DNA of 64,000 bases. Source: a virus. Below are positions 1 through 44,539 of this stretch, piece after piece. The notes below the pieces were generated by a model, which saw nothing but the letters and a program-made list of their open reading frames with translations, had not been told where the DNA came from and did no database searches. Where the stretch lies: the IMG/VR virus record IMGVR_UViG_3300047994_000087, positions 82,742-146,741 of that record; one strand, 5' to 3'. Each line of letters starts with the position of its first letter. Within the stretch, counting starts at the first letter, position 1. A program made the position numbers and the translations under genes.

Positions 1-7
1 CGGAAAA

Positions 8-83
8 TGGAGGTCCAGGCACGACTTGCACATGCACCAGCGCTCTTATCGGGAGCGTGTTCCACTATTTGAACTACTGGACC
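8..83 (-). tRNA. tRNA-Ile(GAT)
   Basis: Cloverleaf GGTCCAG/CTGGACC, anticodon arm CGCTC-CCGATAA-GAGCG, encoded CCA; non-canonical T loop TGCAAGT. Confidence 0.9.
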
Positions 84-85
84 AA

Positions 86-160
86 TGGTCCGAGATGCAC
101 GAATTGAACATGCTTGATCCTGCTCCCAAAGCAGACGGCCAGCCAATGGCCCAATCCCGG
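86..160 (-). tRNA. tRNA-Pro(TGG)
   Basis: CCGGGAT acceptor, anticodon loop TTTGGGA, TTCAA T loop, CCA end. Confidence 0.9.
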
Positions 161-231
161 TCGTAGAGCTGTTAAGCTCTGGGGTTTGGACTAATTCGCG
201 GTCGGTTGAAAAATTTAGAGAAGGCATTGCC

Positions 232-329
232 TGAATTTCCTACATTGTTGATAGCTACGCTGCACAGCGATAATGACGACCAGCTAAACTGGCAATCGCT
301 TTGGAGGCTATAATGTAGGGACAAATTCA
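232..329. ncRNA. Long interrupted hairpin, candidate structured ncRNA
   Basis: Nested complementary pairs TGAATTT/AAATTCA, CCTACATT/AATGTAGG, ATAGC/GCTAT, AGCGAT/ATCGCT, CCAG/CTGG in an ORF-free gap next to tRNAs. Confidence 0.45.
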
Positions 330-648
330 CTGGAACTATTTCCTTTTAAACTAAACCTTTAGTGGCTGATCTTACGTGTAGCGCCTAAAGGCATCTGCAA
401 ACTAATCTATCACAGAAGCTGATCACTTGCAAATTTGTTTGCATTTTTGAAAACACAAACTAGATGCTCATACTTTTAATCACTTTCAAAATCAAATCCC
501 ATAAACCGATCTGCGTCATCATTACTACTAAACTCAAGGAATGTGCGTAAAGGCTCAGACCAATGAATGCAGTCGTATTCTATTTTGCCATCTAGGTTTC
601 TCCATTGCTCAGAGCAGGGGAGAATGACCTGTGTCTCTTGCGTTATTC

Positions 649-1416
649 TCACAACGTCTCCTCGTAGAGTTTAGTTGTCTCCAGTACGAGAGCAGGCAAT
701 ATCTTTACTGGATCACAGGCATACAAACCTGCAACGTTGACGCTGCCAGTTTCAAGAATCCGATAGCCATCTCCACCATCGCAAACATCCAGCACGTAAA
801 CTGGGGGCAATCCAGGATACATTGGGACCGACTCTGCAAATTCTTTTACGGTCTCTTCAACGCCAGCTTCTATGTGACGCTTTCCATCCCTTCTATAACA
901 ACAAACATCGAGGAGTCTTCCTTGGTGCATAAAGCATCTCCATTCATGCCGAATCTTATAGGCTGGAGCGGCAACAACCAATGTTGAAGGCTGCACCTGA
1001 TATCCATTGAATAGTCTCTCAAAATCTTCATAGCAATAGACGCCACCGTTGAAAAGCTTGTCGTTAGTGTCTGGACGTAGGAAAAGGTCTCTATCAACAA
1101 GCACCCCTTCTCTATCCCAACCCCATCTCTCCATTAAAGTCCCAGCTGGGAGCATGATATACTCCTGATTGAACAGAAATTTATGCCAATACCCTGCATA
1201 GTCTTGAAACCTCAGAGACTTCCAAGGGGTCAAATGGAACACATGGTTTTGAACCTGCTTAGTTACGCCGATACTTGCGTGCAGCAGTCCGTAATTCTCA
1301 TAGCGAGCAGCTTCTGTAGTCGGAAGAGTGTTTACCTCAACTTCCAGCCCAAGCTTTTCCGCCGCCTCTTTGACCAGAAGGTCTTCTGGAAGGAAATGTT
1401 CAAGTAACCATTTCAT
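649..1416 (-). CDS. ATP-grasp domain protein (R2K/DUF4343-like)
   Basis: LFLRPD..K.F.G, EWRCF, YVLDVC, ILETGSVNVAGLYAC motifs. Confidence 0.75.
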   Translation of the reverse strand: MKWLLEHFLPEDLLVKEAAEKLGLEVEVNTLPTTEAARYENYGLLHASIGVTKQVQNHVFHLTPWKSLRFQDYAGYWHKFLFNQEYIMLPAGTLMERWGWDREGVLVDRDLFLRPDTNDKLFNGGVYCYEDFERLFNGYQVQPSTLVVAAPAYKIRHEWRCFMHQGRLLDVCCYRRDGKRHIEAGVEETVKEFAESVPMYPGLPPVYVLDVCDGGDGYRILETGSVNVAGLYACDPVKILPALVLETTKLYEETL

Positions 1417-2153
1417 TTCTTCATTCCTTCCTCCAGCGTCACATAGCCATGCTTGATCGCGATTAGTCCTGTGGACATAAGCGGAAGGAAAGCAGACCTT
1501 ATCTCAAACTCCATCAGCTCAGGATGAGCATCGTGCATTCTCCGCACCAACGTGTCCATCTTGAACACTCCAAAAGGAGTGAGCATTTCCAATATTTCTT
1601 GTTGAAGGCTCATCTCATTTTCTCCAACACTTTCTATCTCCAGGGTCATTGAAATCAGCAGCCATAGGCTCTTTATCCCACAAGTCTACAAGCTCTTTTA
1701 CTACAGGGAGGGCTTCCGCTTCGTAATCAACCATGGCTTCGATACTCATCTTGATCGCCCTCCGCAGCTTCCTGCTGGTCTTGGCCTGCACCCACTTATT
1801 GGAAAACTTCTTTCCACACACGCCAATGTGTTTTTCATTGTAGTTTTTATGAGAGCGACTCACTGCTCGCACAGCCTCCAATCAATCTCATCTTCAAATT
1901 TCAGGGCTACTTTGTAAGCGACACCCCCATACAGACAGCTACAATCATTAGACTCTGAGTCATTATCATATTGATCATCAGTGCTACCGCCATTCTCGTA
2001 GAAGAATTGCCTGCGATTACAATCACACGAAGCGCTGCCTTCTTCCCACCAAAATAGGGTGGTGCCCTTTGTCACGCCTGGATAATCCATGTTGTGATCA
2101 TACTCAACCTGAGCACCGTCAGCAGTTCTTGTAATTCTTACTTGGTATTTCAT
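1413..2153 (-). other. Three small hypothetical CDS (1413-1649, 1615-1881, 1860-2153)
   Basis: Overlapping, co-oriented ORFs; the last has a WWEEG..SCDCNR Cys motif. Confidence 0.65.
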
Positions 2154-2213
2154 AAAACCGCTCCAGCAGTCAACATCTTTAGACTACTGGAGTTTTCATA
2201 CGCATCTTGTAAA

Positions 2214-2288
2214 TGGTTCCACTAGACTGGATCGAACAGTCATCAGACCCTTATGAGAGGTCGGCCTTAACCATTAGGCGATAGTGGG
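2214..2288 (-). tRNA. tRNA-Met/Ile2(CAT)
   Basis: Anticodon arm GACCT-CTCATAA-GGGTC, TTCGA T loop, CCA; C1.A72 mismatch. Confidence 0.85.
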
Positions 2289-2295
2289 ATAAAAA

Positions 2296-2370
2296 CTGCG
2301 AGAGAGGGCCACGATCCCCCAACCTTCTCCTTAACAGGGAGTTGCTGCCACCTACTTGAGCTATCTCGCA
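2296..2370 (-). tRNA. tRNA-Asn(GTT)
   Basis: TGCGAGA/TCTCGCA acceptor, loop CTGTTAA; no encoded CCA. Confidence 0.8.
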
Positions 2371-2377
2371 ATATAAA

Positions 2378-2448
2378 TGCTCCATGTTGGTACTGCCCCA
2401 ACAAATCTTCCTTGTAAGAGAAGCGTGATACTTTTTCACCAACAGAGC
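2378..2448 (-). tRNA. tRNA-Val(TAC)
   Basis: CTTCT-CTTACAA-GGAAG anticodon arm; T loop GGCAGTA; no CCA. Confidence 0.75.
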
Positions 2449-2451
2449 GAA

Positions 2452-2523
2452 TCGGCTGCATACGAGTTGCACGTATACCAAACTTCTTAAGAGGAAGGTG
2501 TCCTGCTATTAGACGAGCAACCG
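2452..2523 (-). tRNA. tRNA-Lys(CTT)
   Basis: CGGTTGC/GCAGCCG acceptor, CTTC-CTCTTAA-GAAG anticodon arm; no CCA. Confidence 0.75.
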
Positions 2524-2526
2524 AAA

Positions 2527-2601
2527 TGGCCCCCACACTTGAAGTCGAATCAAGACCCTTTCCTTCGTAGGGAAAGATGCTATCCATTACACTATGCGGG
2601 T
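2527..2601 (-). tRNA. tRNA-Arg(ACG)
   Basis: TTTCC-CTACGAA-GGAAA anticodon arm, TTCGA T loop, CCA. Confidence 0.85.
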
Positions 2602-2602
2602 A

Positions 2603-2678
2603 TGGCCTTCCTGGAGAGATTTGCACTCCCGTAAGCCCGCTTAGAAGGCGGGTGCCCAATCTACTAGACCACAGGAAC
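2603..2678 (-). tRNA. tRNA-Arg(TCT)
   Basis: CCCGC-CTTCTAA-GCGGG anticodon arm, CCA. Confidence 0.85.
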
Positions 2679-2679
2679 A

Positions 2680-2754
2680 TGGTGGGTTGTGATGGTTCTG
2701 CCCCATCATCAAACTGCTTAAAAGGCAGGTGTCTTGCTGTTAGACCAACAACCC
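2680..2754 (-). tRNA. tRNA-Lys(TTT)
   Basis: GGGTTGT/ACAACCC acceptor, loop CTTTTAA, T loop GGCAGAA, CCA. Confidence 0.85.
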
Positions 2755-2775
2755 AAATAGTTTTTAAATTTTGAA

Positions 2776-2849
2776 TGGTAGGGTGCACGGGGATCGAACC
2801 CGTTTTACCTAGTTGAAAGCTAGGGTTCCGACCAATAGAAGAGCACCCC
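2776..2849 (-). tRNA. tRNA-Glu(TTC)
   Basis: CCTAG-CTTTCAA-CTAGG anticodon arm, TTCGA T loop, CCA. Confidence 0.9.
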
Positions 2850-2850
2850 A

Positions 2851-2925
2851 TGGAGCCGATGGACTGGTACTGCCCCGTCGCTTCCACATTACAAGTGTGG
2901 TTTGCTACTTTTACAACACAACGGC
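2851..2925 (-). tRNA. tRNA-Thr(TGT)
   Basis: CCACA-CTTGTAA-TGTGG anticodon arm, T loop GGCAGTA, CCA. Confidence 0.85.
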
Positions 2926-2931
2926 AAAAAA

Positions 2932-3006
2932 TGGTGGAATGTCCGAGCTTTGCTCTCGGCTCTACTGATTGCAAGTCAGTGGTTTTACTGAATAAACTAA
3001 CACCCC
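2932..3006 (-). tRNA. tRNA-Ala(TGC)
   Basis: G3.U70 pair, ACTGA-CTTGCAA-TCAGT anticodon arm, CCA. Confidence 0.85.
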
Positions 3007-3209
3007 AAGTATCAGGCGCTAGCTCGTGCGTTCTTAGTAGAGGCGCTCTTTGTAGTTCGCTCTCGTGTCGTGTTTGTAGTTGTTGTAGAAATAGCATGAG
3101 TAGTAGGTTCCAGAATAGGTGTGCAAACGTTAGCGACAGGCATTACCCGTCTGCTATTTCGTTTGACATTTATCCTTACAGTACTCACGTGTTTAGGTCC
3201 TTGAATAAA

Positions 3210-3284
3210 TGGAGCGGTCTGTGGATCTTGAAACCACATTCTCTGCTTGGAAGGCAGTAGTCTTAGCCTTTGGACGAAGACCGC
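3210..3284 (-). tRNA. tRNA-Gly(TCC)
   Basis: GCGGTCT/AGACCGC acceptor, U73, loop CTTCCAA, CCA. Confidence 0.9.
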
Positions 3285-3367
3285 ATGGCGCCGATTTCTC
3301 ACGTCCCGGCACAGGCGTTAAGCTGGTTTGTTTATCTCCGTCCTAGGACCAGCGAGGACGCTTTACT

Positions 3368-3626: not shown

Positions 3627-4118
3627 TTACTCAACTTTCCAATCAGACACGCCATCACTCAGGAAGGTTTTTGTAGTGGTGGTTGCAATAGTGGTTGAAC
3701 CAGCCGCACCCCCAGCTACCGTATCTGTTCCATTGGCAACTGCCATAGTTACAGTACTAGACCCTGAATTGTGGATATGTATTTCCGCACCCACACCAGC
3801 AGTTGCAGCGGATGGCAAAGTAGCCGTACTAGCTGAACTTGAGGTTTCATAGAACGATTGACCAGCTTTAGCTGTAAATGATCCAGCCTCACTTGTTACA
3901 GCTGTAAAACGACCCTGAAAACCAAGATTACCTTGAACAAGAGTCAACGGAGCTGCTACTTGTACAGGGAAGATACTTCCATTAGGAGCAGTAGTTCCAA
4001 TAAGAACTTGAACTCCGCCATCATACTGAGCCTTAACGATTCCAGCGCCAACCAAAGACAACACTGCTGCGGCCACGACCGCGATTACATTCTTTCTTCC
4101 TAGCTTCATTCTATTCAC
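3627..4118 (-). CDS. Signal-peptide-bearing protein with a tail-fibre-type C-terminal beta domain
   Basis: Basic-hydrophobic N-terminus ending VKA-Q; C-terminal TATLPSAA...SDGVSDW resembles the ends of 51556-53088 and 53586-54089. Confidence 0.65.
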   Translation of the reverse strand: MNRMKLGRKNVIAVVAAAVLSLVGAGIVKAQYDGGVQVLIGTTAPNGSIFPVQVAAPLTLVQGNLGFQGRFTAVTSEAGSFTAKAGQSFYETSSSASTATLPSAATAGVGAEIHIHNSGSSTVTMAVANGTDTVAGGAAGSTTIATTTTKTFLSDGVSDWKVE

Positions 4119-4602: not shown

Positions 4603-4815
4603 CTACTTTTGCCCTGCTTTGCTCCGAATCAAACTATCCAGAGTACTTGCCGCATGGTCTATGTACACAGCAACCTTATCCAACCCATCAGCAGCATCCT
4701 TGTCGTCCTGGTAGGTAAACGAGTACCCTTTTGCAATATCCCTTGCAGCCTCCAATCGTCTTTGCAGGGTGAGCAAATATTCGTAGCGCTCCAATAAATC
4801 TTTTGCCCTACTCAT
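4603..4815 (-). CDS. Leader-tagged protein, small helical (MSRAKDLLE)
   Basis: ORF with the shared N-terminal motif. Confidence 0.75.
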   Translation of the reverse strand: MSRAKDLLERYEYLLTLQRRLEAARDIAKGYSFTYQDDKDAADGLDKVAVYIDHAASTLDSLIRSKAGQK

Positions 4816-5177
4816 ATCCCTAGCCTGTGTCTAATTATGCTCTCGTAGTCATATCCATCACTGCCTACTTGCGCTTTGACTTCCCATATCCCTGCATTGT
4901 CTTTGTTGATAAAGAAGCAAGCCCAATAGTTGGGATCTAATCCCTCACATTCCATGAATCCGTCGTGAGTCATTTTGTAAGATTCCCAAATGTACATAGT
5001 GCTCTTGTCAGTACAAGGACGTTCCAGTAAACAGCGGAGTCTGTCATACCCATGATCAAGTCGCACTTCTGTAAGAGCGCGATCTATAGAACGAGCATTG
5101 ACCGACACACGAATCTTCTCCGCTGTCCCCACGTCCAACATCTCTACTGATTCTAGGATGTGTTTTACTCTACTCAT
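4812..5177 (-). CDS. Leader-tagged protein (MSRVKHILES); paralog of the C-terminal half of 5170-5763
   Basis: Shared ESVE..RVSVN.R..E.RL..MY.W.SY..TH blocks. Confidence 0.75.
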   Translation of the reverse strand: MSRVKHILESVEMLDVGTAEKIRVSVNARSIDRALTEVRLDHGYDRLRCLLERPCTDKSTMYIWESYKMTHDGFMECEGLDPNYWACFFINKDNAGIWEVKAQVGSDGYDYESIIRHRLGI

Positions 5178-5763
5178 CATTCAGGAACTCCTGCACTTCT
5201 TCTGGCTGATCATATGGCCGACCATCCACTACATAACTAGACATCTTCCAACCACTCTTAGCAGACGGCTCTCTGTCTAACTCTCCACGCTTACTAAAGG
5301 CATATGACACTCCCAGAGCATTGGCTGCAAATTCATGGGTACGGTCATAGGAAGCCCAGAAGTACATATCTCCGTCTTCTGACACCAGGAAGCGAACGTG
5401 GTTGCCGTTCAAACCGCGCTCGCCCAATCGCAACTCCTTCTCCATGCGTTTGACGTTACGAGGATTAACAGACACTCTTGTTCCGTCTGCTATCTCAACA
5501 CTCTCCATCGCCCTAGCCATCATGTAGGTCTTCTGCTCCAGGTCCTTTTGAGACATGGGCAAGGTCGGCTTTCCGGCCCACTTGTTTATCGCTGCACGGA
5601 TCTCAGGTGTGACGTTGTCGGTAGTGGCCCAAACAAACTGTCCATCACTGAATGCCATAACCACATGCCAGCAGTACAGGAGTTTGCAGTTGCCGTACAC
5701 CACTTCCGAAGTATGTGAGTCCAGGTCACGGACCAGCTCTAGAAGTCTTCCAGCTCTACTCAT
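5170..5763 (-). CDS. Leader-tagged two-module protein (MSRAGRLLE; internal MARAMES)
   Basis: ORF with the N-terminal motif and an internal leader-like copy. Confidence 0.75.
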   Translation of the reverse strand: MSRAGRLLELVRDLDSHTSEVVYGNCKLLYCWHVVMAFSDGQFVWATTDNVTPEIRAAINKWAGKPTLPMSQKDLEQKTYMMARAMESVEIADGTRVSVNPRNVKRMEKELRLGERGLNGNHVRFLVSEDGDMYFWASYDRTHEFAANALGVSYAFSKRGELDREPSAKSGWKMSSYVVDGRPYDQPEEVQEFLNDE

Positions 5764-6455
5764 TTATACTAAGCGCCTTCCCTACATGATAGTCAATCTC
5801 TTCCTGACTTATCATAATCAGGCCTACCTTTTGAGGACCAAATAGGTGGTGTACATTGAAAGTACACGTCTGCGCCACAATCTCAGTGAACAATACTGGC
5901 CACAATTCTTCTGGAGTATTCATGCACTGCCCTTGGTAGGCAAGCACCTCACCCCTCAGGCTAAAAGGAGCGTGTCCTGTTGTGTGTCCCAGCAGGTCGT
6001 GTGCAATGCGAAAAGCAACGTTTGTATCAACTGACCAGACAGGGTGGATACTGTGCAGACTGGTCACTTTAAACACACCCTGTGCAATGTCCGCAAACAT
6101 CTCGTCTGAGGACTTGTAGGGGTCGACATCGTCGTACCGGATAATCTGATAGTCCTTTGAAAGCATGGCGGCCTGCTCGACACAACAGCGTCCTAACTTC
6201 TCCCAACTTCTCCCAAAGCTCAGAGGCGGAAGAGTCGTATGTTGGCATAGCATCATAAGCAGCACAGATGTCAGCCGCTTCCTTACTATAGAAATCTATG
6301 CCTGTAGGCGATATGGCATACTCGCGCACAATGGCACCGCCACGAGGAGCATTGCCAGTAAGGAATATGGCGTTGTTTGCCTTTACTATCTCCTCAGGAG
6401 ACTTACACTGGATGCGCTCTTCTTTCATAGCTAATAATCTCTTTGCTCTACTCAT
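5756..6455 (-). pseudogene. Leader-tagged putative metalloprotease-like protein (MSRAKRLLA), frameshifted by a 10-bp duplication
   Basis: ORFs 6069-6455 and 5756-6265 join into 229 aa if one TGGGAGAAGT copy (6196-6215) is removed; FRIAHDLLGH...GE motif. Confidence 0.75.
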
Positions 6456-6904
6456 ATCTGAACCACCTTAGCCTTCCCCGATCCGGTCAGCACTAGGGCC
6501 AGATTGAGTCTAGTATTCCCGGACATTATTGTGCGTCGTCCGTTCTTCTCAAGCACGATGGGCAGCTTCATGGGAGAGCCATTATGAATGCCGTCTATGA
6601 TGTCCTGGAAGGTTTTATCGTTCCGATACTGTGGCCAGCTTCTGTAGCCCTTGACCATGTCTAAAAGATCCTCGACCGGCATCATTGTGGCACCGCTTAT
6701 GCCTGACGTGTTTGACAGAGAAATTGTCTGTCCTGCTCTGTAGGCGTCCTCAAAGTCTTCGAAGGTCGGCCAGATGTCTCCAGCCCAATGCCTTACGTGG
6801 TACTGGTACTCGACGTTATATTCCTGTTGCAAGTCCGCAGTGGAATTATCCACCCAGTTTATGGATTCGTTGATTGAAGATAGTATGTCTCGTGCTCTGG
6901 TCAT
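6452..6904 (-). CDS. Leader-tagged ParB/Srx-like domain protein (MTRARDILS)
   Basis: LPIVLEKNGRRTIMSGNTRL matches the ParB N-terminal P(I/V)V...I..G(H/N).R pattern; start moved to the motif ATG, which overlaps the upstream stop. Confidence 0.7.
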   Translation of the reverse strand: MTRARDILSSINESINWVDNSTADLQQEYNVEYQYHVRHWAGDIWPTFEDFEDAYRAGQTISLSNTSGISGATMMPVEDLLDMVKGYRSWPQYRNDKTFQDIIDGIHNGSPMKLPIVLEKNGRRTIMSGNTRLNLALVLTGSGKAKVVQI

Positions 6905-7515
6905 AGCATCTTCCTGTAGTGATCTGTCGATAGACTGTCGGAGAACTCCCACTCAATCTCATCGTCCTTCATTGCACGTGAAGTCTCCAGGTTAGAGAAA
7001 GCAGCGCCTTCCATAGAGTTGTAGACATAAATGGGAATTCCCTTTTGCTTTGCCAACTCCCAGTCTTTCTTCATACGGTTCATGTTTACCGAACCACGTT
7101 GCGACTTACCCAACCACATATGAATCGCCTTTATGTAACTACAAGCATCAGGGATAATCCTGTCTTTGCTGAAGACGCGATCTTCCATCTCAACTGTGTC
7201 GCCGGAACCACGTGAGTAGTCCTTGGCCTGGTGGAAGGCTTGGAAATCCACAGCGTGCCCTGAGTATCTATTGTTGAACTTGTCCCCATCAAGCACCAGT
7301 AGGACTTCCCTGTAGTTGTAGTCTCTGTAGGCATTACGCACACTACGAGACACGCAGAATGAATACGGCTTGTCTGGTGGATTCATAGCCCTGTCCACGT
7401 CGTAACCGCCAAGCATAAACTCGTTGTTCTCCAGAATACCCCCTAGAGCTGAGGCGCTAGTGCCGTGGAACACAACAGATGATATGCGTTCTAGGATGTG
7501 TCTTGCGCGGCTCAA
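6901..7515 (-). CDS. Leader-tagged ADP-ribosyltransferase-like protein (MSRARHILE)
   Basis: VFHGTS..L..IL, FCVSRS, EMEDR: H-x-T / S-x-S / E-x-E pattern. Confidence 0.6.
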   Translation of the reverse strand: MSRARHILERISSVVFHGTSASALGGILENNEFMLGGYDVDRAMNPPDKPYSFCVSRSVRNAYRDYNYREVLLVLDGDKFNNRYSGHAVDFQAFHQAKDYSRGSGDTVEMEDRVFSKDRIIPDACSYIKAIHMWLGKSQRGSVNMNRMKKDWELAKQKGIPIYVYNSMEGAAFSNLETSRAMKDDEIEWEFSDSLSTDHYRKML

Positions 7516-7850
7516 AATCCCATCTCCCTGCCATTCTGATATTTGTCTTGTTGCACTGGCCCCAGCACATCAAACTGCGTGGCAGTTGGATCAAATATCT
7601 GTCCACTCACTTCACACCAAGAGTGGTAGTGTCCGTCGTAATAACCTTCCATTCTCTCCACAGGGAAGCCCGCTCCATATAGCATCTTCGCCCAGGTAGC
7701 GCTTTTAGCGGTGCAGTCTAAGTTCCACTCATCGGCAAAGATGTTGGTGAAACGATGTGACATGATCCAGGCCTTCACCTCTGGGTTAAACCCAGGTGAG
7801 AACCAGAATGGTGGCTCCGCGCTCTCTAATAATCGTCCGGCGCGGCTCAT
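7512..7850 (-). CDS. Leader-tagged transglutaminase/papain-like domain protein (MSRAGRLLES)
   Basis: DC...G.P.E..EG...HSWCEV...FDPTA.QF: Cys-His-acidic pattern. Confidence 0.6.
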   Translation of the reverse strand: MSRAGRLLESAEPPFWFSPGFNPEVKAWIMSHRFTNIFADEWNLDCTAKSATWAKMLYGAGFPVERMEGYYDGHYHSWCEVSGQIFDPTATQFDVLGPVQQDKYQNGREMGF

Positions 7851-8405
7851 CTATAAATCTCCATGGAAGTAGTCCATAAGCAGCTCTTCAGAAGCCGCAA
7901 AGCGCTTGTCCATATCTTTGAATTCGGCTTCATTGGTGTAGCCATAGAACGGTATGTTCAGATTATGACAAAGCACATAGATGTCATAGACCACTTCTCT
8001 TGCCTGGCTTCCATAGCCACTCAGTAAGGACACGTGTACTTCTCTAACGTAAGTACGTGCATTAGGTATTTCAGGCTTGTCGCTGAATATGCGATCTTCC
8101 ATCTCTGAACGTCTGTACTTATCAGTGCCAGCCATCCAGTCGACAGCGTGCCCAGTGTAGCGATCATTGAACTTGTTCCCATCTAGAACTAGCACAGCTG
8201 TGCAAGCTCCATCTTGGAAGAACCCATTAGTTTTACTACGGGCAGCGCTCATGCAGTATTCACGTGTTGTGTCAGGAAGGCCATCTACTCCAGTGTGCTT
8301 TAGATGAAACAAATTCTGCTGCAATATAGACAGCGCATTCTCTCGGCTTGTCGCATGGAAGAGAATGTCCGACACTCGTTCTAAGATGTGACGTGCTCTA
8401 CTCAT
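7851..8405 (-). CDS. Leader-tagged ADP-ribosyltransferase-like protein, paralog of 6901-7515
   Basis: LFHATS, LVLDG.KFN.RY.GHAVD and EMEDR.FS blocks shared with 6901-7515. Confidence 0.6.
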   Translation of the reverse strand: MSRARHILERVSDILFHATSRENALSILQQNLFHLKHTGVDGLPDTTREYCMSAARSKTNGFFQDGACTAVLVLDGNKFNDRYTGHAVDWMAGTDKYRRSEMEDRIFSDKPEIPNARTYVREVHVSLLSGYGSQAREVVYDIYVLCHNLNIPFYGYTNEAEFKDMDKRFAASEELLMDYFHGDL

Positions 8406-9145
8406 TAGTTGCGCTCCCTCTGGACAAGCACCTTACGGTACTGAGAGAAGTTATTCTCAACCCAGAAGACAACGTCCGCTAATCTGTCCTCTGTATGGAG
8501 CACTCTGTCAGTCCGCTTATCTTGGACTTCCCAGCCACTTCCATTCCACCAGATAGGGACAAAATCTGTAGCAGTCCCTGCTACGAATACAGTTTGATAT
8601 TCCTCGTCGCCATGGTGTCTGACAGTTACTCCAGAAGCACGGAACATCACAGCATCACGTCCATAATGATCTCCTTCTGCTGGACGTAAATTATCGTCAG
8701 CAAAAGCAAACACGTAAGCGCTCAAGGGGTCACGAATGAGCTTAGCACTGTTCTTGTAATAGGTGGTCAGACCTAGCCGGTCGAAGTCCTCTAGGCCGTA
8801 CTTGAATCCCTGAGCAATGATGTCGCTAACGTTGTTAGACTTGTGAACCATCCATGTGTTGTGTGTGATCTCATCGAAGTCCATGAACATGTAAGAAGGG
8901 TCATCCGGGCTGTCAAAGCGGTTGTTGTCAAACACCCACTTACCAAACTTGATACGTTCTTCTTTAGAGAGGTCATCAAATTCTTTGCCGTCCTCAATGC
9001 CCTTTTCCTGCGCGTAATTCTCATACTCATAGGAGTGTGAGTAGGAGATGTCGTCAGCCTTCTCATCATCCGTCATGGTGAGATAGTTCTTGAACCAAAT
9101 CAACGGATTACTTATGTACTCTAAGATTTTCCCAGCCCTGGTCAT
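8405..9145 (-). CDS. Leader-tagged protein with an ART-like domain (MTRAGKILE)
   Basis: WMVHKS...DIIAQGF, YVFAF, HYG, DEEYQ. Confidence 0.55.
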   Translation of the reverse strand: MTRAGKILEYISNPLIWFKNYLTMTDDEKADDISYSHSYEYENYAQEKGIEDGKEFDDLSKEERIKFGKWVFDNNRFDSPDDPSYMFMDFDEITHNTWMVHKSNNVSDIIAQGFKYGLEDFDRLGLTTYYKNSAKLIRDPLSAYVFAFADDNLRPAEGDHYGRDAVMFRASGVTVRHHGDEEYQTVFVAGTATDFVPIWWNGSGWEVQDKRTDRVLHTEDRLADVVFWVENNFSQYRKVLVQRERN

Positions 9146-10179
9146 CTATGTGTCTCCACTCGCAAAATGGCAGACACAGGCACCCTCACATCTTCACCTT
9201 CTCGACGACTGATCCACTCACGCTCGTCGTCTTTACACATAAATGAATCTATCTCAGCTTCCTCATAGTCCTTCTCACAGGCATCGTCATAATCATCGTC
9301 GTCATCAAAATCTTCAGGATCTAGTGAGCATTCATACTGCTCTCGCCACCCTTCTCCAGCTATGTACGACATCTGATCAGGATGCTGCCTTGCCCACGAT
9401 CTGGTATATTGAACTTGCTCAAGTTGCCCCGCAAGAGCGTTCTTATCCACAGCAATCACACAGTCTCTGGCTGATATGTCATAGACCCATGGCTTCTCCG
9501 AGAAAGAGACAAAACCCTGTTGCCCTGGTCTGAACACACCGGTGCGTTTGATCTCGTCAGCCACGCTGAATGATGTTGTATGGTACAACTCCTGCGATTC
9601 TAATATCTTAGCCGCTCGTCCGAACGAAGACACTTGTAAGAATGCCAACACTGTGCTTGCTCTACTCTCAAACTGATAGCCATCAACTCCACGAGAATAG
9701 TCATAAGCTTTAACTTGTCCATCACGGCTTATGCCTACTTGCCCTGCATCGAGTTTGTTTATCCATTGAGGGTCAAGATCTGCCTGGTCATAAACACCAG
9801 CTTGTAAGCCCGTCTTGAAGCGCATCAGTTGAGTGAGCTTCTCCATCATCAAGACTTTCACTCCATGAATTGCAACCATCTCGCACTTCGCATAGTGGCT
9901 CATTGGATGCCGTTTGAATATGTCATATTCTTTCTGATTGTCAGACTCCCCCTCCAGATCAAGAGGCATCTTCACCACGTTCTCTCCAGCATCAAAGACA
10001 ACTCTGTATGCCCCAATACCAATTGGTTCCCCATATTTAGTAGTCAGGTCTTCCAACAGCGTTATATAAAGATGGAGTTGGTTCGGTGCGTATGCGAACG
10101 AAGCAGCTACATTTGCAGCAGCCTTCTGATAAATTTGATTATGGTCACGTTCATTCAAGAACTCAGAGGCTCTACTCAC
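9142..10179 (-). CDS. Leader-tagged fusion: kinase-like domain plus ART-like domain (MSRASEFLNE)
   Basis: IGIGAYRVVF..VVK..N..E (Gly loop, Lys, Glu) and YDY; internal RAAKILES followed by LYHTTS..I...G, FVSFSE, DEREW. Confidence 0.65.
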   Translation of the reverse strand: MSRASEFLNERDHNQIYQKAAANVAASFAYAPNQLHLYITLLEDLTTKYGEPIGIGAYRVVFDAGENVVKMPLDLEGESDNQKEYDIFKRHPMSHYAKCEMVAIHGVKVLMMEKLTQLMRFKTGLQAGVYDQADLDPQWINKLDAGQVGISRDGQVKAYDYSRGVDGYQFESRASTVLAFLQVSSFGRAAKILESQELYHTTSFSVADEIKRTGVFRPGQQGFVSFSEKPWVYDISARDCVIAVDKNALAGQLEQVQYTRSWARQHPDQMSYIAGEGWREQYECSLDPEDFDDDDDYDDACEKDYEEAEIDSFMCKDDEREWISRREGEDVRVPVSAILRVETHR

Positions 10180-10191
10180 CGGACTTACCTC

Positions 10192-10386
10192 TTAGTGAAT
10201 AGCTCTTGAGTCTTTCTTCCTAGCTCTGTTCATGGCTCTTGCTAATGCCTGTTCAGGATGCTTTCTGTCTTCCTCATCATCCGCAGCCTTCTGTGCTGCA
10301 AGCTCAGCAGCCGCTTTCTTAGGGTGCATTAGTTTAGAGATCATGCTGCGCTCAGCCAGGTCGAGTAATTTTCCAGCTCTAGTCAT
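10192..10386 (-). CDS. Leader-tagged small charged protein (MTRAGKLLD)
   Basis: ORF with the motif. Confidence 0.7.
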   Translation of the reverse strand: MTRAGKLLDLAERSMISKLMHPKKAAAELAAQKAADDEEDRKHPEQALARAMNRARKKDSRAIH

Positions 10387-10828
10387 TGTGCTTTTCCTCT
10401 TTGGCGCGAGCTTTTAAGTCATGATGAATGTCGTGATCCGACTTGCCACGGTAACTGTCCACGGTCTTGTCGAAGTCACTGTCCGAACCAGCATGCTTAT
10501 CTAAGTACTTACGCACGTGATGGTGTTTGTCGGCCACATGGTTCATAGCTGTCACCACTCTATGTCTCTCCGGGTCGTGACCGTCATCTTTATAGATGGC
10601 CTGGGCATTGTAAGGATGGGACAATTTCTTCTCTAAGTCCTTACCTGCATGTTTAACGTGGTGAGCTGTCTTCTTAGCTTGTGCGTCTAGACTACGTTCA
10701 AAAACCGACCGATCTGCACATGGAAGACAAATTCCTTCTTTTATCTCACCACCAAAGAGAGGCTGCTCACAAGTTTGACAAACGTGTTTCCAATCCAATT
10801 GTTCTAGTAGACGACCAGCTCTACTCAT
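10379..10828 (-). CDS. Leader-tagged protein with a CxxC..CxxC zinc knuckle and His-rich tail (MSRAGRLLE)
   Basis: CQTC...CLPC; His/Lys/Asp-rich C-terminus. Confidence 0.7.
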   Translation of the reverse strand: MSRAGRLLEQLDWKHVCQTCEQPLFGGEIKEGICLPCADRSVFERSLDAQAKKTAHHVKHAGKDLEKKLSHPYNAQAIYKDDGHDPERHRVVTAMNHVADKHHHVRKYLDKHAGSDSDFDKTVDSYRGKSDHDIHHDLKARAKEEKHND

Positions 10829-10995
10829 CACTTAGGTCTCCCAAAAATAAGGTCTTCAATCACTTGGTCGAGCAGGGAAAGGGCTGTGTTTGTTTTGCCG
10901 CTGTCCACCATCTGTCTGATCTCTTTCAGACGGTCGAGAGTGCTGCGCTCTTCATTCATTGTCGTTTGAGACAAAATATCTGCTGCTTTACTCAC
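10828..10995 (-). CDS. Leader-tagged 55-aa protein missing from the ORF track (MSKAADILSQTTMNEERS...)
   Basis: GTG start at 10995 overlapping the upstream gene end, TGA at 10828; fills the gap and carries the motif. Confidence 0.7.
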   Translation of the reverse strand: MSKAADILSQTTMNEERSTLDRLKEIRQMVDSGKTNTALSLLDQVIEDLIFGRPK

Positions 10996-12508
10996 CGACT
11001 TGTTCCTCTGGAATCAGGAACTGCTCAATGTCAGCATCAGAGAGTTCTTGTGCCTCATCTCGCTTGATGTCTGGTGCAAACTTATCCCAGAGAGCGTCAT
11101 ACATGATGCCCACTGAGCCACTCTCGTAATCATCATCGAACGTGGCATAGTTAGGGCTGTAGGGACTTGTACTTGCTGCGGAGTAGAGGTTACTCCACTG
11201 ACCACTATGGAAGTGATCTCCGAAGTACTTGATAGCGATCTCAGCATCATCGTCGCCACCATCTCTCCAGTCGACCAAACCACTCAGATGGCTCTTTAAG
11301 TAATCCATCATCTCTTGCTTAGTTGGGTCCATGGCTTCGTGCTTTCCCTGGTCTCCAAGCCTCAACTTGGTGCCTGCATTACTTTTGAAACCAACATGCT
11401 TAGGTCCTGTGTCAGTGACCTCCCAATCAGCCCCATAAGAATCTTGCACCTTATCACCAGGATTGAGTTTCTTGGAGCCGTGGAAATGATCGTGCACATG
11501 TGAGTACAGATCGTTGTGCGCTGGGTTCTTAGGACGGCCTTGGTCGTCATACCAAGTAGCCTCAGCAACAACGTCCTCATCCTTCTCACCACCCAAGTCT
11601 TTATCATCCTTTGGGTCCTGTGCGTCCTTCAGTTTGTTGTTGTCCTTGCCTTGCTCTTTGGCAGTGGATTCCCAGCTGGCTTTCGTCTTCGGTTTGGCTT
11701 TACGCTTAGCTTCAATCTCTTTAGCCTTGGCCAAATGATCCATCCCGGCCTTCATGTGGCTACCATCGGCATCTTCGTCTTCACAGTCGGAGCCTTCCTT
11801 AAGCACTGACTCTCCCATATAATTGTTGATGTACTCTTTTGCACGTTTAACGGTCGAGTGCAGCGTGCCCCCATGTCCGTCCGGCATGTGCTCTGGATGT
11901 GAAACTGTGTAGCCCTTAACTTTACGGTGAGTGCCAAAGCCTAACTGGGCTGATAGATTATGCGAATCTGGCAGTCGGTGTCCTATCTGTACGCCAGAGA
12001 AGGGCTTTATTGTCCATCCCTTGTGTTCTATGTCTTCATCGACAGAATCTTCCTCAACAGCCATGGCAGCTTTGAGCATGTCTGATGCGGACTCGTTCTT
12101 AGACACTTTATACTTTGGCTTGGAAGAGACTCTGTCCTTAACTTCGTCGTCTGTAAGGTCCGACAAGTTAACTATCTTTGTTGCTCCGTTTCTGAGCACC
12201 ATAATGGACCTATTTCCCTTAGCATCCATGCCTTTGTAATCACGGTGGGTGTTATTCCAAACAGCGTCTAAATGGTCATCACGTTTGGCTTCATTCTTCG
12301 GACCACAACCACACGCACCTTCTCGCACAACGTCTCGTCCAGTCAATTCCTTGATCATACGAGTGGCTTCATCGTGCTTCATAAGGCCGTTCAGTTTGAC
12401 ACCAGCACAGGAAGAAGCGAGCGACTTCTCCGCCATATTAAATCTTTGTCGATCTGCTCTGGAGAGATCATCGTCAAATGACTCAAGGAATTTAGCGGCC
12501 TTACTCAT
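10988..12508 (-). CDS. Leader-tagged multi-module acidic/basic protein, possible internal head polyprotein (MSKAAKFLES)
   Basis: Motif ATG at 12508 preceded by GGAG; repeated x-x-E-[SAG] junctions. Confidence 0.7.
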   Translation of the reverse strand: MSKAAKFLESFDDDLSRADRQRFNMAEKSLASSCAGVKLNGLMKHDEATRMIKELTGRDVVREGACGCGPKNEAKRDDHLDAVWNNTHRDYKGMDAKGNRSIMVLRNGATKIVNLSDLTDDEVKDRVSSKPKYKVSKNESASDMLKAAMAVEEDSVDEDIEHKGWTIKPFSGVQIGHRLPDSHNLSAQLGFGTHRKVKGYTVSHPEHMPDGHGGTLHSTVKRAKEYINNYMGESVLKEGSDCEDEDADGSHMKAGMDHLAKAKEIEAKRKAKPKTKASWESTAKEQGKDNNKLKDAQDPKDDKDLGGEKDEDVVAEATWYDDQGRPKNPAHNDLYSHVHDHFHGSKKLNPGDKVQDSYGADWEVTDTGPKHVGFKSNAGTKLRLGDQGKHEAMDPTKQEMMDYLKSHLSGLVDWRDGGDDDAEIAIKYFGDHFHSGQWSNLYSAASTSPYSPNYATFDDDYESGSVGIMYDALWDKFAPDIKRDEAQELSDADIEQFLIPEEQVGE

Positions 12509-42100: not shown

Positions 42101-44539
42101 GGAGGGCTGAGAACTCCTGATGCTTTCCAAACTCAGGCGCTGCTTCAGGAATGAGTACAAGCTCTGTGCCTTCCCATCCATACACAAACTTGCCTTCCAG
42201 GCCTTTGCCCTTCATGCAATTTGCATTCTCTAGGACATAGAGCAAGTTAGGCATAGTGATCTCAAACTCAAAGCCGCGAGGGTCATACACACGTGAGTAA
42301 GTCTGTCTGGCATCCCATCCTCTGCAACCACCGCCTGCCATCTTATTGAGCACGAATCCTTCAGTAGGCACATTGTCATATTCAGTGTTATCTATCTTCT
42401 CATCACGCCAACTCTGCCACGACTTCTCTTTACGGAGCACGCCCTTAGCGTCGTAGTAGATGACGTATGCAAGTTTGCCTGTATAAGTACCCTTGCGGTC
42501 CTGGTAGCCTACGTTGATCCGCTTGGGTATGTATATTGTGCTGTTCATCCGTTCCAATTCTCCTTGCCATACACACGCATCTTGTACAGATCGTCTCGAC
42601 TCATTTCTATAACCTCTTTGGCATTATTAGTCTTCTTCCAACCACACCCCCAACCATCCTCTTCCCACAAGCAGTCGAAGCATTTACGGCGCGGTGGAAA
42701 CGCCCCTCCCATATTCAGGGGTGTGTACTCACACTCTGCCACTTTGGTGTGCTTGCACTTCCTCTGTGTCTCAGCAATGAGTTCTGACTGTTCTTTGATG
42801 AGCTTATTTATTCTATCTTGCAGCCTGTAGATAGGGGGCTTGATTGTTTTGGTCATCCGTTCTCCCAGAGCTTGTCTGTTAAAGCTCTACTAGTCCGCTC
42901 GTGCTCCCGTTTTAACATGTCATATTCAGTGCACAAGGAAACAATCTCCGCCTCTAAATTACCTTTAGCGCGAATAGCATCGCCTACTGCTGCCCCATAT
43001 TCTGGCTTATTGACCAGCATCGACTTTATTTGATTAGCGGACACTAGATCATTAATGAGCTTGAGTATTTTCTCTGCCCTATTTACAGAATCTTCTTTCA
43101 TTCATCTATGTCCTCAAATGCTGCTTCGTAAGCATGCGCCCACGACTCCAGTTCTTCTAGCCGTTGCAATGGCACCCCTATCTTTGCCTCTTTAGGATAC
43201 TTAGGGTCTGCCGCATACGCCTCCAGCTCGTCATGTAATTTGAGCACGGCCATCGGAGTATTATAGTTGATGGCCTGCATGGCCTTCTCAGCCCTGGTCA
43301 AATACTCATACCTGTTCCTGGATATGAACTCGCCTATTGCACCACTGTTCTTACAGGGCTCACTCACCATCAGATAGATCCTGGCTTCCTTACAGATCTT
43401 GTCTGCCTCTTCTTCATTTGTCACAGCCCTAAAGCTGTTTTGCAAAGCAGTCGCACGGAAAGGGTTTCTGTGGTGCCACTTATCCGCATAGAATGAAGCC
43501 ACAAAGGCGCCGTCCATTACAAGTATCTTGTCGCCGTACTTGGTCTTCAATACTTTTCTCATTAGACCGACTCCGTGTCTGTGACTTTATAAGCTATACG
43601 CTTTGAAGCCTCTTCTATCTTCCCTTCACGCAGCAGACCCTCTAGCTCAAAGTACAACACCTCTGCGTCGTCCTCTGAAAGATCGTCGAAGCTTTCATCA
43701 TTGAGGTCAAATAGGTGTCTCTCATACGGAAGGCCAAATGCCTTAAGCAAAGTAATGGCAGTGTCTAGACACCCTATCTCACACAAATTTGTTGCTTCAT
43801 AGATCAAAACATGAACACCTTCACCACATTGGTGATACACACTGGTTAATTTGTACGGCGTTGTCAGCTCAATCATTACTGCAACCCCGGAAGTGCGTTG
43901 ATGTACTCCCACACGTGATCTGAACTGCCGGTCTCGGACTCGTGCAATGTGATGTTGACTATCTCTTGGAAGTAAATGTTCTCGTCGACACTGTCACTGC
44001 CCTGACATTCTTCAAGCTCTTCCAGCTCGCTCACCCACCCTGCAATCATGTCCCGTATTGCGTCATATCGCTCCGCTTTCTCAGCATCGCTCAAGTCTTC
44101 AGTAGGCCCGAACACCTGCGCATCACAGTCGAACTCTTCTTCATTTGTTGGTTCCATTTATCTGCTCTCCTTAGTACTTCACCCAGTAACCGTCCCTTGC
44201 AAGGATGTCCTCATTAAGACAAATGTCCGTGTTGCCCTTAAACAGCAACCGTCGACTCCCTATGTTAGCCACCTTCGGTAAGGTGCTTAAAAGAATGAAC
44301 ATCTCTCTTCCACAATCCAAGTAACCAGCTCCAGCGCCACTAATCATGTCCATCAACGGCCACTGTAGAGTCAGCTTATGCTCCAGATACGAAACATATT
44401 CCGGGGGCTCTCGCTTCCATTCAAAGAATGGCGTCTCGCTTTGTTGGGAGAAAAGCATGAAAGTCGCTTCGCACCACTCCTTCTGTTCCAGCTCTTCGAA
44501 CTGCTCAGTCAGAGAGTCTTTGTATTCTTCTGCACTCAT
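36193..44539 (-). other. Dense array of ~28 small hypothetical CDS, including conserved-family 42033-42557 (GKLAYVIYYD.KG.LRKE.SW; probably truncated)
   Basis: Packed minus-strand ORFs. Confidence 0.65.

Follow-up and report, generated by a model that had tools for sequence, protein, structure and literature searches.

A shared N-terminal tag on fourteen consecutive phage genes: a probable capsid-targeting sequence of the T4 type

What does it mean when fourteen consecutive phage genes, most of them encoding unrelated proteins, begin with the same short peptide? The genes in question occupy the minus strand at positions 4603-12508 of the window, by which we mean the whole 64,000-nucleotide stretch analysed here, the final 64 kb of IMG/VR record IMGVR_UViG_3300047994_000087. 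The record is a single contig of 146,741 bp (CheckV, 100% complete) from an uncultured phage known here from its genes alone; coordinates labeled "window" lie within the 64-kb stretch and those labeled "genome" within the whole record. From several independent lines of sequence comparison we consider it probable that the nine-residue start M-S/T-R/K-A-x-x-I/L-L-E (the tag) is a lineage-specific capsid-targeting sequence. For the proteins that carry it we infer packaging, binding to the scaffolding core, cleavage after the Glu, presence in the virion, injection and the time of expression. The tag is the principle of the T4 capsid-targeting sequence (CTS) in another spelling and on a larger scale, not a new category. 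An earlier, sequence-only reading of this DNA had proposed a distinct, expanded code: the larger set and the different spelling stand, and the distinctness is one of spelling only, the logic being that of the T4 CTS.

The tag and the array

All 14 consecutive open reading frames (ORFs) of the array begin M-[ST]-[RK]-[AV]-x-x-[ILF]-L. They are tightly packed, with many starts overlapping the preceding stop (ATGA), and three start codons are not ATG (TTG at window 7515; GTG at 10179 and 10995). The sequence-only reading had reported these ORFs with their positions and leaders, and all were recovered on the minus strand. A Glu at residue 9 continues the tag in 9 of the 14 genes. Exact [IL]-L-E occupies residues 7-9 in nine leaders and F-L-E the same residues in one, and the remaining leaders have [LIM]-x-E ending at residue 10-15 (MKE-12, INE-13, LNE-10, LAE-12, MNE-15). 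Beyond the nine, three further genes have L/I-x-E ending at residue 10-13 and the rest have M-x-E or F-L-E.

A position matrix trained on the 14 array leaders was scanned over the six-frame genome translation (200,942 positions, threshold 15 bits). Eighteen positions exceeded the threshold, 16 of them directly after an ATG, GTG or TTG; the other two are an internal copy in array gene c10 and a C-terminal copy in its paralogue u3, both tentatively kinase-like. No other ORF start in the window had a high matrix score, in agreement with the sequence-only reading. Of 29 occurrences of the strict pattern in all six frames of the genome, 14 are the array starts. A chance origin of the shared tag is excluded. 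The genome holds at least 20, and about 20, tagged genes: 14 in one unbroken row and about seven elsewhere.

The tag is conserved as protein and not as DNA, because its conserved residues are encoded by varying synonymous codons (Arg by AGA, AGG or CGC; Ser by AGT or AGC; Leu by TTA, TTG, CTT, CTA or CTG) and the 40 nt 5' of each tagged start, when compared, have nothing in common. Conservation at the level of DNA alone, a possibility that the sequence-only reading had raised against itself, is thus not what we observe. All-against-all BLASTP of 24 proteins returned only four paralogue pairs (c06/c08, c02/c03, c10/u3 and c12/h2), and the protein bodies are therefore mostly unrelated, as had been claimed. 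The array genes are as follows, in window coordinates, with lengths in amino acids (aa).

10988-12508, minus strand: c14, 506 aa, leader MSKAAKFLE; first array gene in the direction of transcription
10828-10995, minus strand: c13, 55 aa, GTG start, leader (M)SKAADILSQTTMNE; the gene call is also present in metagenomic contig L008
10379-10828, minus strand: c12, 149 aa, leader MSRAGRLLE; Cys-rich segment paralogous to h2 (genome 42525-42851)
10192-10386, minus strand: c11, 64 aa, basic (isoelectric point 10), leader MTRAGKLLDLAE
9142-10179, minus strand: c10, 345 aa, GTG start, leader (M)SRASEFLNE; fusion protein
9598-9624, minus strand: internal leader copy FGRAAKILE in c10, in frame at the junction of the two halves, 17 bits on the matrix
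8405-9145, minus strand: c09, 246 aa, acidic, leader MTRAGKILE; family search without result
7851-8405, minus strand: c08, 184 aa, leader MSRARHILE; modeled ADP-ribosyltransferase (ART) fold, Tpt1/DarT-like "H-x-T" family
7512-7850, minus strand: c07, 112 aa, leader MSRAGRLLE; orphan
6901-7515, minus strand: c06, 204 aa, TTG start, leader (M)SRARHILE; c08 paralogue (38% identity) of the same ART-fold family
6452-6904, minus strand: c05, 150 aa, leader MTRARDILSSINE; orphan
5756-6455, minus strand: c04, leader MSRAKRLLAMKEE; frameshifted into overlapping ORFs 6069-6455 and 5756-6265
6207-6216: the insertion that breaks c04 relative to L008, 10 nt, TTGGGAGAAG on the coding strand
5170-5763, minus strand: c03, 197 aa, leader MSRAGRLLE; "VSVNPRN" domain
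4812-5177, minus strand: c02, 121 aa, leader MSRVKHILE followed by SVEM; "VSVNARS" domain
4603-4815, minus strand: c01, 70 aa, leader MSRAKDLLE; last array gene

Head machinery and tags in other phages

A capsid-targeting signal of this kind calls to mind the machinery that T4 uses, and by family matches the head machinery of this phage is T4-type: an S77 protease, a scaffolding core and a gp23-type capsid protein. The protease and the scaffold are fused in one protein of 502 aa (genome 46222-44714, L003:4714-6222, minus strand), whose N-terminal part matches Peptidase_S77 (PF03420, the T4 gp21 family; 34.4 bits against a cut-off of 27) and whose C-terminal half is coiled-coil and scaffold-like. 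The next gene encodes a protein of the Gp23 capsid family (PF07068, 51.8 bits). Searched against the PDB, a two-sequence protease profile found T4 gp21 (5JBL) as its best match, with the region of the catalytic Ser aligned (VSSRA versus VASRG), and where the protease fold ends, a conserved [VL]-x-E stands beside the ITE of T4. On this evidence, and with a capsid protein 40% identical to those of Kleczkowskaviridae, the phage belongs to the T4 superfamily only remotely. In the scaffold-like half, the motif LG-[ST]-x-x-E-L marks four repeats, each of some 22 residues, which are also conserved in Rhizobium phage RHph_TM30 and to which the tag might dock. We also considered the N-terminus of the capsid protein as a tag-like cut site and dropped it, as QKKAAEYIKE aligns with YLKQ in RHph_TM30 and is unconserved.

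The sequence-only reading had expected a scan of the whole genome to find the motif in the head module, and two or three tagged genes do lie directly behind the capsid gene. The tagged genes outside the window, in genome coordinates, are listed here.

43090 (start): head-module gene directly behind the capsid gene, leader MSRASDLIDLIE
42525-42851 (start 42851): h2, head-module gene behind the capsid gene, leader MSRAGQLLKRME; c12 paralogue
41944: leader remnant of 14 codons in the head module
78828-79469 (start 79469): S-adenosylmethionine (SAM) lyase gene, leader MSRAKRILAE; PF23780
80242 (start): leader MKRAKRIIE
74531 (start): leader MSRSGDILAAAE
12083 (start): leader (M)ESRAGSLINMAE

Immediately behind the capsid gene and before the first of these head-module genes, at genome 43091-43162, lies a G+C-rich hairpin followed by T residues, which resembles a leaky terminator in front of them.

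The same tag recurs in phages that lack DNA similarity to this one. Megablast of the array against GenBank phages gave 0 matches, and a search of IMG/VR with the capsid protein found no close relative. Logan contig L015, from a divergent metagenomic phage, has 0 DNA identity to this genome and only a few proteins in common with it (33-45% identical), and it carries eight consecutive tagged genes, with the leaders MSRAKEILE, MSRAKGILE, MSRAGKILE (twice), MTRAGKILE, MSRARDIIE, MNRARKILS and MSRARKILR. Their cargo includes a NUDIX domain (PF00293) joined to an ART-like domain, ART-PolyVal (PF18760), an HNH-like protein and others, and the c03 "VSVNPRN" domain is common to c02 and four or five of these genes. 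By sequence comparison, the tag is far better conserved between L015 and this phage than the cargo attached to it.

The nearest cultured relatives are Kleczkowskaviridae, among which RHph_TM30 has a capsid protein 40% identical to that of this phage and a matching head gene order, the fused protease-scaffold included. RHph_TM30 DNA has no detectable similarity to this genome, and the tag is nonetheless kept as amino acids: gp329, gp330 and gp331 begin MSKSADLI, MSRASGLI and MSRAKDILE, and gp285, near the capsid gene, starts MSRSSELL. The annotation of tagged gp329 reads "prohead core protein", and the protein falls in phrog_3503, "head scaffolding protein" (E 3e-12). This bears out the expectation of the sequence-only reading that related phages would show the tag on a scaffold, and it hints indirectly that tagged proteins may be present in virions; phrog_3503 has no match in the present genome. 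The tagged genes of RHph_TM30 adjoin genes annotated as pectin-lyase-fold and SGNH/GDSL-hydrolase products, which we take to be tail-fibre-like structural genes. The head module of Alishewanella phage Slickus01 is T4-like, the phage has an S77 protease, and [LI]-T-E sites are numerous in its core proteins. Nine of its consecutive genes start MKIDxLYESLLEE, with homologues of the ART-fold cargo among them; the terminase gene stands upstream of this array and shares its strand. The placements in Slickus01 and RHph_TM30 fit late expression.

The ART-fold family connects these arrays to T4-like tags. Its homologue in a KVP40-like vibriophage, which has an S77 protease, starts MKKFNEFANELAE, a T4-like CTS, and several metagenomic homologues have T4-like MKTF..F..E tags. 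The H-x-T family to which c06 and c08 belong has 2,023 representative metagenomic clusters at E <=1e-3 and no Pfam family. Leaders were counted among the best 150 of these 2,023 matches (P0001-P0150), of which 117 are N-terminal copies: a Glu immediately precedes the domain in 103 of the 117, L or I stands two residues earlier in 103 of the 117, and leader length peaks at 8-10 residues. Every array-bearing phage checked encodes an S77 protease, and among the genomes examined the tag-array pattern recurs in four lineages. If the tag is a capsid-targeting signal, one cargo domain should be found under tags that differ between lineages and yet all end in the gp21 motif, as it is here. The outcome of each check made was the one that this reading predicts.

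Readings of the tag

The CTS of the T4 proteins IPI, IPII, IPIII and Alt, removed by gp21, was reportedly described by Mullaney and Black in 1996. The first 10 residues of IPIII suffice for packaging, gp21 cleaves after L/I-x-E, and within the CTS the targeting residues lie toward the N-terminal part and the processing residues at positions 8 and 10 (PMC9026906, PMC3012670, PMC5694885). T-even internal proteins are diverse, with the conserved CTS as the one constant (PMC3012670, PMC9026906). The present system resembles this one in several respects: (i) an N-terminal tag of about 10 residues that ends in L/I-x-E is borne by otherwise unrelated proteins; (ii) the layout is in two parts, here conserved residues 2-4 and then [IL]-L-E; (iii) a gp21-family protease, a scaffolding core and a gp23-family shell are present; (iv) the cargo includes ART-type proteins (compare Alt) and an anti-restriction candidate (compare IPI); and (v) the gene sets are hypervariable and the tag alone is conserved. 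It differs in spelling, MSRAxx[IL]LE against MKTYQEFIAE in T4 with only the [LI]-x-E end in common; in number, with about 20 tagged genes (14 in one array) against 4-6 in T4; in having protease and scaffold in one polypeptide; in cargo that is mostly acidic and enzyme-sized, whereas that of T4 is small and basic; and in belonging to a phage that is only a remote T4-superfamily member, read from its genes alone. Giant phages offer a looser parallel. In phiKZ, 201phi2-1 and SPN3US an S80 protease cuts the propeptides of inner-body and ejection proteins after S/A/G-x-E (PMC5694885, PMC7411985, PMC10052503). There, too, many head-internal proteins are cut after Glu by a gp21-related protease, and some paralogues (SPN3US gp53 and gp54) have identical N-terminal propeptides; their propeptides, however, are long and heterogeneous rather than one short tag, the P3 residue of their cut motif is small and not L/I, and their genes do not form one array of unrelated enzymes.

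On the capsid-targeting reading, the tag would late in infection bind each cargo protein to the scaffolding core, formed by the coiled-coil C-terminal half of the protease-scaffold fusion. A gp23-type shell would then assemble around the core and enclose the tagged proteins, and the gp21-type S77 protease would cut after the Glu of [LI]-x-E, taking off the tag and leaving the mature protein free in the head. In the next infection, the proteins would leave with the DNA and act ahead of any phage gene expression: the SAM lyase would counter SAM-dependent restriction, and the ART-fold enzymes, possibly with the kinase-like protein, would modify host targets. Cargo genes could be gained, lost, fused and split at tag junctions, giving the array, because the tag would be a self-contained module at the first codons of a gene.

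Several observations weigh against capsid targeting. The neighbours of the array look like early genes (tRNAs and thyX, downstream of which it lies), not structural ones. The T4 late promoter TATAAATA occurs once in the whole genome, which we count as absent, and neither intergenic k-mer enrichment nor a longest-common-substring comparison found a promoter or motif linking the array to the head genes. Most of the cargo is acidic, whereas the internal proteins of T4 are basic. Head-module h2 has no clean [LI]-x-E, and 5 of the 14 array tags have no exact [IL]-L-E at residues 7-9. The cutting specificity of the protease is assumed from T4. Finally, the [LIV]-x-E ahead of the ART-like domain could belong to that domain itself and be a matter of this family only.

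Three other explanations account for part of these data. The tag may be unconnected with the capsid and work inside the infected cell, as a peptide for docking or regulation. It would then bring all the proteins that bear it to one partner of phage or host origin (RNA polymerase, a chaperone, or a protease adaptor or degron reader), or set the time of their turnover. Protein-level conservation on unrelated proteins requires a common binding partner without specifying which, the array stands among early-looking genes, and u3, the paralogue of the N-terminal half of c10, has lost the tag, so that the domain evidently works without it; all of this such a peptide would accommodate. It would leave unexplained why the tag ends in a T4-type protease motif, why it appears right after the capsid gene and on a scaffold-family protein of RHph_TM30, why the same cargo domain carries a T4-like CTS in KVP40-like phages, and why an S77 protease is found in every array phage checked, and we regard it as unlikely.

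Descent from a single ancestral gene, duplicated repeatedly until only the N-terminus remained recognisable, appears to us quite improbable. Duplication is a frequent source of tandem arrays, and c06/c08, c02/c03, c10/u3 and c12/h2 are true paralogues. The tag is found, however, on unrelated families (the PF23780 SAM lyase, the ART fold, the PF00293 NUDIX, PF18760 ART-PolyVal and the phrog_3503 scaffold), the SAM lyase and NUDIX family domains begin well past it, and between phages without DNA identity, a relic should not be what is conserved best. We give very little credence to a module at the level of nucleic acid, whether for translation initiation or coupling or as a recombination hotspot, with its coding function incidental. 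The overlapping ATGA starts, the presence of ATGAGTAGAGC in 8 of 18 starts and the fusions and splits that fall exactly at tag junctions would agree with one. A precedent exists in the PeSL promoter-terminator cassettes, which are described as mediating modular shuffling in T4-type genomes (PMC2839356, PMC4122927). PeSL and tag alike are short elements, repeated where genes meet in a hypervariable region, and plausible substrates for gene gain, loss and fusion; a PeSL is non-coding DNA, whereas the tag is coding, kept as amino acids with free synonymous change and without a conserved flank. Synonymous replacement is extensive at every conserved residue (Arg AGA to CGC; five Leu codons), nothing is conserved upstream, and the tag persists as amino acids in L015 and RHph_TM30, which have no detectable DNA similarity. 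Recombination at the tags can, moreover, be a consequence and not a cause of a signal at the protein level.

If the tag is a loading signal, about 20 proteins delivered together with the DNA, SAM lyase and ART-fold enzymes included, could be listed from sequence alone, and these would be candidate factors for counter-defence and host takeover in the first minute of infection. The principle of the T4 CTS, which a handful of proteins in T-even phages have made known, would then work respelled and enlarged in remote branches of the T4 superfamily, namely phages with Kleczkowskaviridae-like head genes, Slickus01 and KVP40-like phages. Metagenomes could be searched for packaged effectors by rule, and phage heads could be loaded with foreign proteins by means of new tags. 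Two cultured phages, RHph_TM30 and Slickus01, allow the idea to be tested directly.

Cargo, fusions and genomic surroundings

Searches of Pfam and PHROGs left most cargo proteins without a family match. The sequence-only reading had spoken of a mixed set of enzymes, a description borne out in part: the SAM lyase and two of the ART-fold type stand firm, and orphans make up most of the cargo. The SAM lyase matches PF23780 with 61.6 bits (cut-off 28) over residues 47-134; the Pfam domain begins only at residue 47, and the tag is therefore an add-on to this family. The AlphaFold2 model of c08 has a predicted local distance difference test score (pLDDT) of 89.4, with 62 for leader residues 1-10 against 96-98 in the adjoining fold, so that the tag seems appended to the fold rather than built into it. 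Compared with the PDB by Foldseek, the model has as its first 34 matches listed chains of Tpt1/KptA, DarT, scabin and cholera toxin, the sole exception being an uncharacterised structural-genomics protein at rank 34; the best E is 1.5e-4 and the TM values are 0.45-0.49. Residues H17, E101, E103 and R105 are invariant in 61 sequences. Against Pfam, c06 and c08 have nothing above cut-off (PARP, 13.6 bits against 26.7). From the model, the assignment of c06 and c08 to the ADP-ribosyltransferase fold is solid, and their enzyme activity is putative.

Other cargo is less clear. As an ART-like protein c09 was rejected, with no match to the family profile. The acidic c14 is largely disordered; its stored model in the Atlas has low confidence (pLDDT 0.48), and usable structural neighbours were not obtained for it. 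Gene c04 is intact in the metagenome (ENA) contig L008, which is 99.76% identical to this genome, and there encodes 229 aa (phrog_3170). The 10-nt insertion in the present copy is apparently a tandem duplication, and the break would be either a recent pseudogenisation or an assembly error.

Fusion and fission at tag junctions are seen most clearly in c10, the only two-module fusion in the array, which consists of the tag, a kinase-like domain, two internal tag-like segments and a second domain with an acidic tail. Gene u3 (genome 80243-80755, L005:4243-4755) is 41% identical to the N-terminal half of c10 and ends in a tag-like segment, and it is without exactly the 11-residue tag region (MS/NQYW versus MSRASEFLNERDH/NQIY in c10). 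One genome therefore holds tagged and untagged copies of one domain. A separate tagged gene, u2, directly follows u3. For the kinase-like character of the c10 N-terminal half and u3, a weak lead, we can point to a GxGxY..V..K-like motif and a PDB profile match to the effector kinase SteC (E 0.096); the AlphaFold2 model has a pLDDT of 37, and a homologue search returned only a near-identical copy. The C-terminal half of c10 was not retained as a solid ART-like domain, since only the first motif matched, at a probability of 35%; it is possibly ART-like. In L015, P0129 has the layout tag, NUDIX, tag-like SRASTILDE and ART-like domain.

These fusions recall the polyvalent proteins of phages and conjugative elements (Iyer, Burroughs, Anand, de Souza and Aravind 2017, PMC5512222). 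Such proteins join effector domains, among them ART, NUDIX and nucleases, and packaging, with delivery alongside the DNA, is predicted for them. The c06/c08 domain is found on its own, in proteins of about 290 aa that have a second, C-terminal domain, or inside polyvalent proteins of 1-3.4 kaa alongside ART-PolyVal, and in the two-domain fusions c10 and P0129 a copy of the tag stands at the junction. The differences are that the domains are here mostly separate genes, each with its own tag, rather than one giant polypeptide, and that the proposed processing enzyme is the prohead protease and not an embedded zincin-like peptidase. Thirty ART-like copies are embedded in proteins of up to 3,449 residues, with Glu at P1 in 22 of the 30 and L, I or V at P3 in 25 of the 30. 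That [LIV]-x-E is, as a general rule, a processing site between polyvalent-protein modules strikes us as somewhat doubtful. More speculatively, in a reading that is more likely wrong than right, a single delivery strategy might run through the T4 superfamily in two forms that can turn into each other, tag arrays and giant polyvalent proteins; in it, [LI]-x-E would serve as loading handle and as S77 cut site between modules and fusion or splitting would occur at tag junctions, as in c10, u3/u2 and P0129. Were this so, the H-x-T ART-fold family would be an injected effector across the whole superfamily, and the packaged "injectome" could be read directly from any such phage genome.

A faint likeness to the tag is seen in Yersinia phage YerA41 (MW570730), in which two small head-module "structural protein" genes (L019:1487-2241) begin MNKLTRVGQVL and MSRISDLNKKFE (MSRISDL). 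With a capsid protein 27% identical, this phage is too distant and the resemblance too weak to serve as support, and it was set aside. Its published virion proteome is said to comprise 63 particle-associated proteins.

The array is separated from the upstream block of tagged genes by a cluster of 19 tRNAs on the minus strand and an HNH endonuclease gene. The cluster extends over window 1-3290 and genome 81010-82741 (L005:5010-10025), with the HNH homing-endonuclease gene inside it at L005:5597-6454. A sigma-70 promoter scan gave background level. Proteins with signal-peptide-like N-termini occur near tagged genes: one of 163 aa, rich in Ala, Thr and Gly, is encoded at window 3627-4118 (minus strand), and another of 214 aa adjoins the tagged SAM lyase gene (L005:2184-2828, minus strand). 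A homologue of another signal-peptide-like protein lies just ahead of the tag array in L015.

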